Assembly (NCBI GenBank): GCA_030615175.1 | Contig: JAUWZX010000001.1 | Coordinates: 652,044-716,043 of the forward strand | Direction of reading: 5' to 3' | Origin: Candidatus Parvarchaeota archaeon | GTDB taxonomy: Archaea; Nanobdellota; Nanobdellia; WJKC01 | DNA: 64,000 nt | In this document: one piece after another, positions 9,001-21,000 of the stretch | Layout: every line of letters starts with the position of its first letter | Position numbering within the stretch: the stretch's first letter is position 1 | Made by a program: the position numbers

Positions 9001-12000
9001 TGAAGAGAAAAGAAAGAATTTCAAAAAAGCGTACACTGAAGTGATTAATGATTTAATCAGTAAAAATAATTTATCAATGCTTATTGACGGCACTATACTG
9101 CCTGACTTAGAGGAATCATTCGGGGTTAACATTAATTCATTAAGTGAAGTCATGAGTAGTGAAGAGGAAAAAGAAGTGATGAATGCTGAAAGCTTTATTA
9201 AAAGCCAGCACAACGTTGACATTGATTATAAAGGAATTAAATCAACTATTCAACCAATTGCTTCATTAACTAAGAATCAGGTGAGGAGCCTGGCATCATA
9301 CTTGAAACTGCCTCCTGAAGTAATATTAAGACAAGCGTTTCCAGGACCAGGCTTGTCAGTTAGGACTGTTGGCGAAATAACTCCTAACAAGTTAGAGGTT
9401 GAAAAGTATGCTCAGAAAATAGTTGATGAATCGTTCTTAGAATACTTTGGGAAGACCATGACCGTAAAGAGTGACGGAACCCAAGTCCCGTTCCAGAACT
9501 TTGCTGCAACAATGGATAATAAATCAGGAAGTTACTTTAAATTAAGCAACGTATTTGGTGATGATGATTTATTCAATGATTACGAGGGCTACATCATGAA
9601 GGATGTCAAGGCAACAGGCAAGCACCCGGAGGGCGGCGGCAGGGTTTACGCTAAAGCATTAATGATTCGCGGTCCTTACTATCTCAAGAAATTAAAAGAA
9701 ATTGGACGAGTAATACCTGAATTAACTGATTATGAAATTACTAAAGTTTTATACCAATTAAAGTACTTTAAACGCCTTAAAGAAAACTACTGCATCATCA
9801 TTAATTCATTTGACAGCAAGGACGCTCGTACTGCAACAATAACTGAATTAGATTATAAATTCTTATCAGATATTGCAAGGAAACTGATAAGGCACTCACG
9901 CGTCGACATGGTGGCTTTTAACGTAACTAATAAGCCTCCGGGAACCATTGAATTCGAGTGATTAATTCATTAATTATCTTTATGCTTTAAATACCATTTA
10001 ATGAATTTCCTGAAATAATAATTACTATTTCTCGCAGCATTAATGTTAAAGAATTTCTTAAGATTATTCAAGCCAATAAAATAATTAGTACTCGTCTCCC
10101 TGTTAAGAATGCAGTCAAAAATGTCAAGGTCAGAGTCAATCCCTGGTTTCTTAAGAATAGTGTAACCGCCGCCAACCTTAACAGAGTAATGAGCATCACT
10201 GCCCCCTGTCTCACAGCAATTAAGTACCCTGGCAAGCCCGTCCTTAAAATGAAAAGTTAAAGAATTAGTGATTTCAAGAGCGTGAAGGTAAAAACCTTTC
10301 TTATATAAATTCAAAATAGATTTAAGCCCAACACCATGAATTTCAGACAAGTAATGAGCAGGCATCACAGTAACAAAAAGACCCTGCCTCACCTCTTCAG
10401 GAATGGAGTAACCACGAATTACTTTATGACCATCATTTAATTTATCCTGAGCCTGAATTAATTCCTCTAAAGATAAGTTCTTATCCTTAAAGACTTTAGG
10501 AAGCATTTCAGCACTCTTAGCATTATCAGGATTAACACCCCAGAAGTGAACAAGCATGTGCCCTCCCTTAATGCCTGGACTATTCTTACTATCAATCTCC
10601 ATTCCATAAGTAACGATTAAGGATGAATCCAGCTCACGCTTAATGCGTTCAACTTCATTAACCACTTCCTTTAAATTAAACACGCTGTGATGAGGAGTCA
10701 TGCTGATAGCACTCAAACCCCTCTTATCAGCCAGGTAAATCAATTGTTTAATATCAGGCAGATTACTGCCAGAATCAGGAGTGTAGTCAGGGTGAACATG
10801 GTCATCCCAGCAGGGATGCCCTTCATTTAACACCTGCCTCTTAACATTTAATAATGATTTAAAGAAGTAGTTAACACCTAACTTAAATGTTTTAAAAGGC
10901 GTGAATTCATTTAAGAAAACAGTCATCTTCAATTAAAAAAAGAGAGTATTAACTTTAAAATATTTATATACTCGCGACAGGCAATTTTAACCTTTCTTTA
11001 ATTGATTAATAAGAGTCTTATACAAATTCTTATAAGTGCTCTTGTAAGACTTCCTGCGCTCTGCTTCCAAATCATCTATAACCTTTGTTCCACGCCAAGA
11101 AGTTCGTTTACTAACCCCTTTTAAAGGCTTGTACTCTTCTGTAAGTTCTCCACCATACCTGAAAAAGTCATCCAGGAACTCAGCCCAAGACACTTTTCTC
11201 TTATCTTTAAGAGCTAAATCATAACCCCTGCTGGTGATTACGTTAAAGGTTGCAAGATTAATAGATATTCCAACCTCTTTCTGGTATTCTAAGAAAATCT
11301 CATTTAAACCCATAACCTTTGGAACATACCAGTCAGGCAACTTAGCATCATACTTGTCAAAAACATCTTTAATAAAACCAGACCCTTGATTAATAACACC
11401 ATCCAAAAACTTCTTCTTACTCAAAACTTTTTCCATAAATAATTAAACACAACAAAGATTTAAAAGATATTGCAAATGAGTATAAAGGATTTTTGTTAAA
11501 ATATTATGTTTATAAATATATACCAGCGACAGGCAATTAATAAAAAGGTTTAAAAAATTTAGATTAGACAATGAAAATAGTTTACATTGGAGCAGGCTCA
11601 TTCCGCTTCTCAATATTCTTATTCTCAGACATCTGCCGGGCAGTAGAGATGTCACCCTTAGAAACCTGGTTAGTGGACATTGATAAAACATCATTAGAAC
11701 TCATGACAGGAGTGCTTAAGAATATGGCTGGAAAAGCAAAACGCAGAAACGGGATTGAAATTAAAGTACACTCCACAACAGACAGGATTAAAGCATTAGA
11801 AAACGCTGATGTAATATATAAGAGCATTTCAATTGGTATTCAGGCGCCTGAATGGTTTGATATTTACCTGCCATTAAAATTTGGAATCCCGCAGAATTCA
11901 GGCGGCGGATCAGGAGACTTACTTAGGAGTTTAAGAACTGACCCTGTAGTAGCTGACATAGTCCGCGACGTGAAGAAGTATTGCCCTAAAGCACTCTTAC

Positions 12001-18000: not shown

Positions 18001-21000
18001 ACTGGAATTATGCTTCTAAAAAAAGGCATCCAAGTTTAAAGAAGTATTTAAACGCAGGCTTTAAAGTCATAGTCAGTCCATCAATGCTTAATTTACAGAG
18101 AAATTTTCCTGACAATAAGAATTCAAGCAGTAACATAATAAATTTTGTGAAAACAGCTTATGATTACAGGGATAGGGGCTGCCTGGGCGTGTTGACTTCC
18201 ACATGGCAGGGTCAGAGGTTTCATTCACTGCGGGAAAACGAGGTATTCGGGGCAGTTCTCACTGCAGGGGTTTCATGGAGTACTAAAGGATTTGATTATG
18301 AAACATTTAAACAGGATTACGGGCACTTATTTTACGGTATTAAGAAAGAAAAATTAAAGTCATTTAATGAATTATTCACTCTTTTAAGTTCATCTGCATC
18401 AAAGTATTATTTAAAATTCCTTAATATACCATTAACTACAATACACCCTCCGTTTGGCACTTACATGTTTAAACATCCTTTAATTAGGAAGAATGATTTT
18501 GAAGAATTAGGTGATTTAGGCGTTAAGTGTTTAAGGTTATATGATGAACTTAAGCCAGGCGTGTTATTTGAACGTGAAAACTTTGAGTGCATGGAATTCG
18601 GCGCTGAACTGGCAAAGTACTTGGGGAATAATAAGAAAGAGGATGCCAGTTACATTAGGGATAGATATGAGGAATTATGGTTGAGAGCTGCTAAGAGGCC
18701 TGGTCTGGATGAAATACTGAAACGCTTTGACACGTTAATCAGGCAGTATGATGAGGAAGCCGTTAAAGATCCTTATCTGCCATCTGAATGGATTTGGGCT
18801 AGAGAGAAGACCTGCCCTGTTAAACCGCGTTATTTCAGGAAGGTAATTGAGATTGATGGGCCGGTAAAGAAAGCGGTTATTCAGGGGGTTGCCTGCAATC
18901 AAATGAATGTTTATGTAAACAATCATTATGTTGGGGATGTTTTTTCAAGATTCTCATTATCCGTTCTCCCTGTTAAGAACAGGGTTAAGGCGTGGGATGT
19001 GACAAGATATTTGAATGAGGGTAAGAATGTTATTGCTATCAAAGCATTTAATTATGAGGGATTTAAGGGTGCTGTTAATCTTTATGGTCAAATCCAATTA
19101 AGCGGTGATTCATTAATTAAGGAAATAAAAACTGACAGGACGTGGGTTACTCAGAAGAAGATGATATATAATAGTGATGATTGGAGGCAGTTAAGTTTTA
19201 ATGATGATGACTGGAGAACAGCTAGATCTTACGGTCGCCCGCCAGAGTATAATGGCGACATCTATACGCCTGATTTATTAAGCGGAGAAGTTTCAGATAC
19301 TCAGGATTATTTTGGAGTGCAGGGGCATTTTTATCATTTATTAAGGAATACTGCAGGCAGTTTCCTGACTCGTTTAATAAAGCCATTTATTCCAAAAATC
19401 ATTAAGAGTTTAAAGCCTCGCATTAACTGACTCATATATTATAAAAAATGAGTGTGGGGGACGTGGAATAACAAAAATAGAAGTTCACGAATCACTTTTC
19501 ATCTTCCGTTCTCTTTGCTTCATCAACCTTTCTTGCTAAAAGACTCGTAAACATTATATATTCTAATGCCTTGTCAAGATTATCAAGTGTTATATCACTA
19601 TGAGCTTTGGGGTCACGTACACCCATAACAGCACCAGCAAAAAGACTTTGAAATCCTTGTTGCTCCGTTTTTTCAGTATCTGTTCTTAATTCATTAATTT
19701 TTAATTTTGGGTGAGTAACACTAAAGACCTTACGCATTAACTTCGCCCCATCTAATTCCTTTCCACTTTTTTTGTCCTTAGGCCTGCCAGTCTTTTCCTT
19801 AACTAAATTAATGATTCGCTTACTTGAAGCAAAGATGGCCTCAGCATAATGACCATTTCGAAATAACTTTTCTGAAACTTTTTTAATTTCAGGATGGATA
19901 TCCAGTATTTTATAAAGTTCATATGGATTGCTTGCTTTAATAACTTCAACCTTTCCACTCTTACTCCAAGGATATGGTTTTCCGCATTTATGACAAAATT
20001 TTGGAACGGGCACAGAGTAAACAGAAGCAACCCCACCCCTAACCCAAAGTTTTCCTTTGATTCCTTCTTGGCAGTTAGGGCATCTATGAATTGTTTCTGC
20101 ACCACATTCCTCACAAAAATTTCTGCGTAGTCTTGGATTCGATATATGATACTGTGTAATCTTGTGACCATTCAGACATACTTGCATAGTATCCTGAAAT
20201 CTTCCATCATGTCCATAATGAATCATACGTCACACGCCCTTCGTGCGGCCTTTACTGTTGGCGCCCTTCCCTCAGGAGCATTAATTGAATCACTCATTGA
20301 CTTTACAATTTGTTTAACTTTTTCAATTTCCTTTAATCTACTGGCGAATTTTTCTTTGCCCCTAGTTATGGCTTTATTGAGCTCCATTAAAATGATTTTT
20401 GGGTGTGATAACTCTGAGAGATTAATATATTCAAGGTTGACAGTTTCTTCAACCCTATCCATCCAAACATACCAGCCCTCAAGTCCTCTTGGAAATAAGA
20501 AGAAATTAAATATAACTTCATGACTAACACCTTCCTCATCTTCAAAAGAGTCAGACGTTTGCCCTATTTTTACTGATGCATCAAACTTTTTAAGAATAGG
20601 AGCTATCAAGTCAAATAATTCTTTATACTTCTTGTGAATACTTTCTTCAGTGATTGTTTTTTCAATGTCCATCGTAATGCTTTTTAAGACATCCTCAGTT
20701 AATTTAGAAATATTGATATTTTGGCTGCGAGCTCTTTCAATTACTCTTTTATCAACACTCAAGTTCAACTTTTGCTTTTCAGGTCTTTCGCCCATGAATA
20801 AAGGGAAATTGAATCTATTTAAATACTTTTTGATTTTGTCAAATTTATTTAAATAGTTTTCGATACTTTTCGGCACTTATACTCCTTACAAGGTCTTACA
20901 AGGCGCATTCATTATAGTATAATGAATGGGAGAAGTAACACAGACCTAAGCGAGCAAGCCACTCATAAATGTTTCGTAGAGTTACTTAAGTATGAATGCG

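Follow-up and report, generated by a model that had tools for sequence, protein, structure and literature searches.

Three questions were raised by this locus: why a small DPANN genome carries adjacent glycosidase genes that are rare among its relatives, where these genes came from, and on what the enzymes would act. The window analysed was a 64,000-nucleotide stretch of Candidatus Parvarchaeota archaeon (contig JAUWZX010000001.1, positions 652,044 to 716,043). Four adjacent ORFs were found where the survey's finding had placed them, all intact and with the claimed Pfam families over cut-off. The features were as follows:

5200..26340, no strand: variable region holding the cluster, flanked by the genes for L18e-L13-S9 and for rpoD-S11-S4-S13
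8693..9961, + strand: GMP synthase subunit B, Asgard/Thermoproteota type; absent from the strains of three runs
11571..13079, + strand: GH4 glycosidase, 502 aa; intact ORF, Pfam domains over cut-off; Asgard (Lokiarchaeia) clade
13076..14494, + strand: Sulfatase/SGSH_C "sulfatase-like" hydrolase of the alkaline-phosphatase superfamily, 472 aa; intact ORF, Pfam over cut-off
14500..16992, − strand: alpha-mannosidase-like enzyme of family GH38, 830 aa, or 823 aa if started at the second Met; intact ORF, Pfam over cut-off
16993..17036, no strand: intergenic stretch between the divergent GH38 and GH20 genes; TATA-like boxes seen by eye on each strand
17037..19430, + strand: GH20 hexosaminidase with a GH20C/GcnA-like fold, 797 aa; intact ORF, Pfam over cut-off; Asgard clade
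43235..45700, − strand: second GH38, a paralog of the first (44.7% identity)

The four genes were not one operon, and their orientations were mixed. The ATG start of the sulfatase-like gene overlapped the GH4 stop, the GH38 gene was convergent with the sulfatase-like gene across a 5-bp gap, and the GH38 and GH20 genes were divergent across 44 bp. The second GH38 reported by the survey was recovered, and the GH130, PIG-L and two PfkB genes that it had listed were all found elsewhere on the same contig. Its claim that signal peptides are missing was borne out by a Kyte-Doolittle scan of five enzymes, in which no hydrophobic leader or TM segment appeared (19-residue maxima of 0.75–1.39); the N-terminus of GH4 was the NAD-binding strand. 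Rarity in the class also held, as the GH4 protein was found in none of 60 relatives, the GH20 protein in none of 400 genomes of the phylum, and 2 of 400 other genomes of the class had GH38N above the cut-off. PF00884 was over cut-off in 0 of 5 relatives' genomes.

Origin of the genes and the variable island

The GH4 and GH20 proteins resembled families of Lokiarchaeia, which belong to the Asgard archaea, the close kin of the eukaryotes; identities reached 71% and 56%, respectively. Among the 119 matches listed for each protein, 24 of the 27 named GH4 matches and all 21 named GH20 matches were Asgard. Both trees placed the proteins within Asgard clades (IQ-TREE support of 98/97, 100/99, and 100/100); for GH4, the AU test with a distant outgroup did not reject the alternative in which the query falls outside the Asgard-type group as a whole (p 0.075). 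Of 121 donor-class genomes, 86 had GH20 and 19 had GH4. On the DPANN side, none of 400 genomes had GH20 and none of 60 had GH4. The sulfatase-like protein was 55% identical to a protein of one Lokiarchaeia-class genome. Its orthologue occurred in 1 of the 14 genomes of that genome's family, and the Lokiarchaeia copy may therefore itself be a transfer. By these similarities, the GH4 and GH20 genes probably came from Lokiarchaeia (Asgard), and the sulfatase-like gene probably did so as well. Horizontal acquisition, which the survey had kept as a fallback, was thus right by similarity, distribution and trees, and the identity of the donor is its informative part. A metagenome scan for a GH4 sister clade gave three loci at 54–55%. 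The nearest sisters of the GH4, GH20 and sulfatase-like proteins could be other DPANN copies.

The GH38 pair was different. The nearest match outside the genome was 29% identical, in a cluster with Bathyarchaeota members, and none exceeded about 33%. Lineage-specific deletions and an insertion were common to both paralogs, and the pair is apparently an older in-genome duplication, deep and genome-specific. The genes of the cluster are, judged by similarity, of at least two origins.

When eight genes were run against donor-class genomes, three were clearly close, two ambiguous, and three distant or absent. The donor of the GMP synthase was ambiguous (Asgard/Thermoproteota type), and the LRR protein was uninformative on origin, with a top cluster from Promethearchaeota and bacterial clusters scoring equally. 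A Lokiarchaeia-like character of the PHP neighbour and of GH130 was rejected: at the thresholds applied, neither had a match in any of 121 genomes, in a search run without a positive control. An Asgard origin of the extra TFB was likewise rejected, as the other TFB of the genome was equally close to Lokiarchaeia. The top GH4 and top GH20 matches came from different genomes. No donor genome held these genes together in 10 neighbourhoods of 8–19.5 kb and 49 short loci, and block transfer of a donor cluster found no support there. A viral vector was also rejected, since GH4/GH20 relatives were absent from viral contigs; the best eight plasmid matches listed were of about 30% identity or less.

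All four genes had 95–99%-alike copies in four runs from three studies, which were all the runs examined. The datasets carrying the locus were cold-seep and unlabelled metagenomes, with no RNA datasets among the holders listed. The GMP synthase subunit B gene was missing in the strains of three runs, and the island therefore still gains or loses genes. Neither flanking repeats nor att-like sites were conspicuous. That the island had inserted into a once-intact operon of rpoD and L18e was ruled out, as L18e was not within 1.5 kb after rpoD in three relatives and lay elsewhere in one. An assembly chimera, with Lokiarchaeia DNA joined into a DPANN contig, would agree with the Asgard nearest relatives, and no contig among those listed ran continuously from the cluster to the ribosomal genes. 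Such a chimera is nevertheless extremely improbable. Asgard-type genes alternated with non-Asgard genes, the depth of the cluster in the four runs was like that of its flanks, and an independent contig bridged GH38 and GH20. The GC of the cluster was within the range of the genome and codon use was no clear outlier (percentiles 0.06–0.76). The left anchors were syntenic with those of a same-genus genome, which had other genes behind them, and the proteins carried private deletions that were absent from the Asgard copies.

Active-site residues of the encoded enzymes

The GH4 protein had both GH4 domains and the GH4 fold. The NAD strand (Gly7–Ser10), Asn148, the metal residue Cys170 and His207, which are invariant in the alignment of relatives, were kept. 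Loop 110–118 was rebuilt, with a 2-residue deletion and the loss of the conserved Asp112, and the acidic, glycine-rich loop motif before the RxLRT helix, kept in 52 of 55 GH4 relatives, was absent. Six of the seven departures from conserved columns fell in one 11-column loop (0 of 200,000 permutations). The loop acid, which corresponds to the essential Glu111 of GlvA, is Asp or Glu in 3FEF and 5C3M. The GH4 enzyme would either be re-tuned or have ceased to be a canonical NAD-dependent glycosidase.

Residue Ser62 of the sulfatase-like protein occupied the nucleophile position, and the metal ligands and Arg66 were kept. In the nucleophile column of 153 relatives there were 131 Thr, 5 Cys, 1 Ser, 1 Pro, and 15 gaps; by this column, Ser62 is an apparent private change within a Thr-nucleophile family. 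According to an excerpt of PMC5066984, a Thr nucleophile cannot yield formylglycine, and SulfAtlas does not accept the Thr-nucleophile family as sulfatases. The protein is unlikely to be an FGly sulfatase. No FGE was found in the genome; 23 radical-SAM matches there may include an anSME. The Ser-hydrolase would act on phosphate esters more likely than on sulfates.

Both GH38 paralogs had three domains and kept the zinc ligands, the nucleophile Asp and the acid/base Asp (Asp181 and Asp298 in the first), and they would work as normal alpha-mannosidases.

The GH20 protein kept the TIM barrel and the catalytic Asp255-Glu256 pair and Arg. Residues Trp353, Gly391, and Asp392 were changed, in columns whose conservation among 79 relatives was 95% or more, while Trp323 and Trp390 were kept. 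The changed residues belong to loops 7 and 8, at aromatic and O4/O6-binding positions. Five in-frame deletions removed about 90 residues in total, and the protein was 797 aa long compared with at least 859 aa in the 79 aligned relatives, which were chosen at 850–960 aa. The lost Asp probably binds O4/O6, as Asp375 is described to do in an excerpt of PMC11308363; the two residues were equated by the Trp-x-Asp motif that closes strand 8. The GH20 enzyme would have shifted specificity. In one GH20 stretch, 22 synonymous and 13 non-synonymous changes among strains (pN/pS 0.16) show purifying selection. Sequencing error is an unlikely origin of the odd residues, as the contig of one run covered GH4 without gaps and differed at 6 of 1059 bases, and in three runs Leu353 of GH20 was retained via a silent change.

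Function, decay and the host

The reading preferred here, with a probability of roughly 0.6, is a species-level variable island of mostly Asgard-derived, altered cytoplasmic hydrolases for sugar salvage. Within this small DPANN genome, a variable island would have gathered cytoplasmic hydrolases from other archaea; GH38 would have arrived earlier from another donor and then duplicated. The proteins would have been retained, trimmed and altered at their substrate-binding loops. They would perform cytoplasmic exo-cleavage of small glycosides that bear mannose, HexNAc, and perhaps uronate or phosphate; these would enter with the contents of host or prey cells, not via an oligosaccharide importer of the archaeon.

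The survey had read GH4, the sulfatase, GH38, GH20, GH130 and PIG-L as a single intracellular route for taking apart sulfated N-glycans of archaea. The GH38 and GH20C-like pairing is used on N-glycans in streptococci, and here the GH20C fold match, the catalytic residues kept in GH38 and GH20, and the short intergenic stretch common to the divergent pair speak for such a role. The cytoplasmic, class-rare carbohydrate-active enzymes of the survey stood, but a coherent sulfated N-glycan pathway did not, and is judged unlikely. Origins and orientations were mixed, the hydrolase belonged to a Thr family in a genome where FGE was not found, and the altered GH4 was closest to an alpha-galacturonidase. 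The PIG-L gene overlapped a glycosyltransferase gene beside a DedA/VTT gene, a biosynthetic context. GH130 had an unrelated neighbourhood, and its nearest relative was a beta-1,2-mannobiose phosphorylase, under cut-off. Both PfkB sugar kinases were present, with best scores for ribose-1-phosphate kinase or ribokinase, and neither an ABC solute permease for sugars nor a ROK kinase was found in the genome (87% complete). The cluster thus lacked the co-oriented genes, single origin and oligosaccharide importer of an N-glycan utilisation locus.

The missing transport and kinase genes would also suit stranded passengers in early decay, which have lost substrate-binding residues and drift toward pseudogenes. 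Conserved active-site residues were lost in GH4 and GH20, about 90 residues were deleted from the latter, and the terminal branches were long (0.27 and 0.43 compared with medians of 0.13 and 0.12 in the GH4 and GH20 trees, respectively). However, all frames were open and all deletions in frame, the GH4 changes were confined to one loop, the pN/pS value was low in the GH20 stretch, and the genes persisted in all four runs. A nematode GH20 likewise lacking the D375 equivalent is active, as described in the excerpt of PMC11308363. Decay is accordingly quite unlikely.

A tentative possibility, on the doubtful side, is that the species lives on a Lokiarchaeon in cold-seep sediment as an episymbiont or parasite, having acquired host hydrolases in several events, with sugar-binding loops re-tuned so that host glycoconjugates serve as food or are remodelled. 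Three genes that lie apart in the donors all indicate the same class and therefore suggest repeated contact, and the cold-seep and unlabelled origin of the datasets agrees with this. Gene sharing marks the DPANN-host pairs Nanoarchaeota-Crenarchaeota, Huberarchaeota-Altiarchaeota, and Nanohaloarchaeota-Halobacteria, according to an excerpt of PMC7414124. Against a host, the identities of 55–71% indicate that the transfers are old, the neighbouring PHP, GH130, and GH38 were not Lokiarchaeia-like, the extra TFB was no nearer to Lokiarchaeia than the other TFB, and the GMP synthase donor was ambiguous. Their large hydrolase families would make Lokiarchaeia likely sediment donors anyway. No DPANN symbiont of Asgard archaea was found in the literature seen in part, where paper supplements may list Asgard-DPANN sister relationships; the nearest case is the co-occurrence of Heimdallarchaeales with Nanosalinia, in an excerpt of 10.64898/2026.03.20.713109.

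For most DPANN lineages no hosts are known. If true, the host link would open a first genomic approach to a nano-archaeon in symbiosis with Asgard archaea, and to Asgard glycans. The species can be named as a target for enrichment from seep sediments and for FISH and co-abundance work there. If the link fails, what is left is an island of ordinary gene transfer, for which the N-glycan label should be given up. The donor and recipient enzyme pairs, a few pocket residues apart, offer a direct test of the substrates of Lokiarchaeia GH4 and GH20 and of the function of the large Thr-nucleophile "sulfatase-like" family.

Comparison with known systems

The top solved match to GH4, by sequence (E 4e-37) and by fold (TM 0.77/0.89), was LplD of Bacillus subtilis, a GH4 alpha-galacturonidase (PDB code 3FEF). 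Both share Cys-His-Glu after the metal cysteine; the identity was 28%, and LplD kept the loop Asp that was lost here. The GH38 paralogs shared all catalytic and zinc residues with class II alpha-mannosidases (Ams1, SpGH38, and MngB-like), but scored under the MngB cut-off. The top fold match to GH20 was GH20C of Streptococcus pneumoniae and GcnA of S. gordonii, with the catalytic Asp-Glu pair and Arg in common; the identity was 17%, and the probable Asp375 equivalent was gone. The sulfatase-like protein shared the PF00884 fold, the x-x-P-x-R motif and the metal ligands with FGly-dependent S1 sulfatases and phosphonate monoester hydrolases, whereas the nucleophile of its family is Thr. Its fourth metal ligand is His instead of Asn, as described for PMH-type enzymes in an excerpt of PMC12421950.

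The uncharacterised Lokiarchaeia GH4 and GH20 families had the same domain layout, including the C-terminal beta-domain of GH20. The GH4 loop acid and Trp353, Gly391, and Asp392 of GH20 were absent from the DPANN copies, and the DPANN GH20 was about 90 residues shorter. As in the host-to-symbiont transfers described for known DPANN pairs in the excerpt of PMC7414124, the DPANN genome held genes nested in another archaeal lineage. Here, in contrast, the probable donor is Lokiarchaeia, and three, perhaps four, genes point to it.

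Gene layout and strain variation

The four cluster genes, each an intact open reading frame over its curated Pfam cut-off, and a second GH38 gene were located as follows.

11571–13079, + strand: GH4 glycosidase
13076–14494, + strand: sulfatase-like gene, its start overlapping the GH4 stop
14500–16992, − strand: GH38, convergent with the sulfatase-like gene
17037–19430, + strand: GH20, head to head with GH38
43235–45700: second GH38, 44.7% identical to the first

The survey's finding of four adjacent genes of these families was borne out, and the second GH38 and the GH130, PIG-L and two PfkB genes that it had placed elsewhere on the same contig (C5) were also found. 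Signal peptides had been reported absent, and a hydropathy scan showed neither leader nor membrane segment. The claimed rarity among relatives held in the samples searched here: GH4 was found in 0 of 60 relatives and GH20 in 0 of 400 phylum genomes. PF00884 passed its cut-off in 0 of 5, and GH38N did so in 2 of 400 genomes of the class, as the survey names it, apart from the genome under study. The observation was confirmed as such. The gene orientations required at least three transcription units, which ruled out a single operon; TATA-like boxes were seen by eye on both strands of the short GH38–GH20 gap.

Contigs of four public metagenome runs from three studies (three runs labelled cold seep, one without label) covered all four genes, mostly 95–99% alike or better and at a depth similar to the flanking genes. 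One contig crossed the GH38–GH20 junction and another connected the GH20 end with the gene beyond 21009; among the contig pieces listed, none ran unbroken from the cluster to a ribosomal gene. GC content and codon use lay inside the range of the genome. An assembly chimera is unlikely, and Lokiarchaeia DNA misjoined into a DPANN contig would be a very improbable source of the cluster.

Gene content in the cluster region was fluid. In three runs, contigs jumped cleanly over the gene for GMP synthase subunit B (8596–9964), with a joint of four shared letters, and 19448–21009, holding a DUF2321–TIGR02391 fusion and a CcdA-like gene, was skipped in one run, X2, with 96 other letters in its place; runs X1 and X3 had an unresolved joint at 19410–24119. 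A same-genus genome had the same left anchors (L18e, PspC and a 106-residue gene) followed by other genes, with no glycosidase within the stretch read after them.

All four runs covered two large adjacent ORFs of 676 and 708 residues (22105–26272), which have no Pfam or NCBIfam match, up to the end of the stretch compared. Two copies (85%) of a 27-nt element lay at 10960–10986 and 11512–11538, either side of a 149-residue orphan, and the X1 and X2 strains had short deletions adjoining the second copy. Three tandem 31-nt repeats (26243–26335) separated the 708-residue gene from the rpoD end.

Origin of the cluster genes

Among the matches listed, the best relatives of GH4 were 55–71% identical and those of GH20 50–56%, and Asgard archaea made up 24 of 27 and 21 of 21, respectively, of the matches carrying an organism name. 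For GH4, four genome records turned up: two of Promethearchaeota, one of Ca. Sigynarchaeum and one entered as "uncultured archaeon". GH20 was matched in 86 and GH4 in 19 of 121 genomes from the class of G064, a Promethearchaeota genome; we take this donor class to be Lokiarchaeia, from GTDB and because the sample includes a Sigynarchaeum genome. In FastTree phylogenies with partial sequences omitted, the query was nested in an Asgard-labelled clade for GH4 (135 rows; 0.999) and in Asgard-labelled clades for GH20 (130 rows; 0.999 and 0.992), the immediate sisters being records without an organism name. IQ-TREE (26 rows, with four distant outgroups) gave three starred nodes above the query, but a tree that put the query outside this group was not rejected in the AU test (p 0.075), so the direction of transfer rests mainly on distribution.

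The sulfatase-like protein was 55% identical to a G064 protein and grouped with it and one further sequence (support 1.0); an orthologue occurred in only 1 of 14 genomes of G064's family. The GH38 pair had no match above 32% outside its own genome among the 118 matches listed. GH38 was present at 27–33% identity in 9 of 121 donor-class genomes, and the nearest GH38 cluster has Bathyarchaeota members. Private indels common to both copies point to duplication after arrival. None of the donor neighbourhoods examined held two cluster genes together, so that in all likelihood the four genes came together in the recipient genome.

Enzyme pockets and selection

GH4 retained the NAD strand, Asn148, Cys170 and His207, and its predicted fold was that of GH4 (pLDDT 88), with LplD alpha-galacturonidase as best match. 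Six of its seven departures from 102 conserved columns fell in one loop (residues 110–118), a concentration reached in 0 of 200,000 permutations. The loop acid, which was kept in 52 of 55 relatives and which we take from the GlvA work to be needed for activity, was lost. Both GH38s retained every catalytic residue.

GH20 had five in-frame deletions and departed at 10 of 133 columns in which at least 95% of 79 relatives agree. The departures included Trp353, Gly391 and Asp392, which in the model lie after strands 7 and 8 of the barrel, in loops of low confidence. The fold was nearest GH20C/GcnA, in which Asp375 binds O4 and O6 and adjoins Trp373 (PMC11308363, available text). Since an active nematode GH20 enzyme has no equivalent Asp (same source), a shifted specificity would be as plausible as activity loss. 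Among the differences in GH20 listed against one X2 contig, 22 were silent and 13 non-silent (35 in all; pN/pS 0.16, p 2e-7, contig ends estimated). Early decay of the acquired genes, into which the lost GH4 acid and the GH20 departures could also fit, appears quite improbable beside this ratio and the intact reading frames.

The sulfatase-like protein retained the metal ligands and Arg66. The family nucleophile was Thr in 131 of 153 rows and Cys in 5, and Ser62 at this position was private to the protein studied here. According to the available text on SulfAtlas, Thr gives no formylglycine, and such proteins are not to be named sulfatases without evidence (PMC5066984). No FGE was found in the 1-Mb genome, which had 23 radical-SAM matches, among which an anSME-type maturase may lie.

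Proposed sugar salvage, possible host and donor

The reading we favour, at a probability of about 0.6, is a species-level island that would have collected cytoplasmic hydrolases, three of them acquired from Lokiarchaeia, with selection probably retaining the folds and changing the pockets. The hydrolases may salvage sugars from small glycosides, the presumed substrates, which could enter the cytoplasm along with host or prey material. The survey's interpretation, an intracellular breakdown of sulfated N-glycans, was partly supported and is unlikely as a pathway. No ABC solute permease or ROK kinase was found in this 87%-complete genome, and the remaining contexts do not fit: the PfkBs scored best as ribose-1-phosphate kinase and ribokinase, PIG-L overlapped an MJ1255-type glycosyltransferase gene close to a DedA/VTT gene, which is a biosynthetic setting, and GH130 adjoined a QueC-like gene and had no match in the donor class.

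Two MFS genes were present, one of them, below cut-off, for a GlpT/UhpT-like sugar-phosphate antiporter (L107:5554–6849; C5 563.6 kb), a candidate route for host metabolites. In the class relative G015, the GH38-domain matches sat on two small contigs (loci L087 and L088; 9 and 18 kb) together with a GH92, an ABC-type sugar operon and an MFS gene. This is either a genuine second sugar locus in DPANN or contamination of the bin.

An Asgard host for the species would be compatible with the salvage island and is held here as a tentative, rather doubtful idea. Eight hand-picked genes were compared with donor-class genomes; three were clearly close, two (GMP synthase and TFB) ambiguous and three distant or absent, so that 3/8 is not a genome-wide fraction. 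GMP synthase was matched at 43–49% in 68 of 121 donor-class genomes and in 0 of 200 class relatives; its Atlas clusters include Thermoproteota and Aenigmarchaeota. The gene is of Asgard/Thermoproteota type. The N-termini of two proteins of the syntenic variable region, L089:15563–16636 (relative G001) and L093:7258–7752 (family member G003), may resemble longin-type domains, with no Pfam support. Several divergent TFIIB-like genes were present (6233–7135, 48852–49685 and 58234–58743), and TFB-like genes adjoin L18e in G003 too. For a leucine-rich-repeat protein (57233–58210), the top Atlas cluster was mostly Promethearchaeota, with bacterial clusters equal in score.

Gene sharing is described as a mark of known DPANN–host pairs (PMC7414124, available text). 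In the freely accessible literature searched, no DPANN with an Asgard host appeared, and the nearest precedent was a correlation only, between Heimdallarchaeales and Nanosalinia (PMC12993045 and 10.64898/2026.03.20.713109, available text). In the accessible part of a survey of ~600 DPANN genomes, the donors named are Euryarchaeota, TACK and bacteria, and ~37% of the genomes are reported to carry glycoside hydrolases (PMC8407392); sugar hydrolases in DPANN are thus not in themselves new. Gene transfer into DPANN is a known kind of event; here the probable donor is Asgard and the pockets appear re-tuned.
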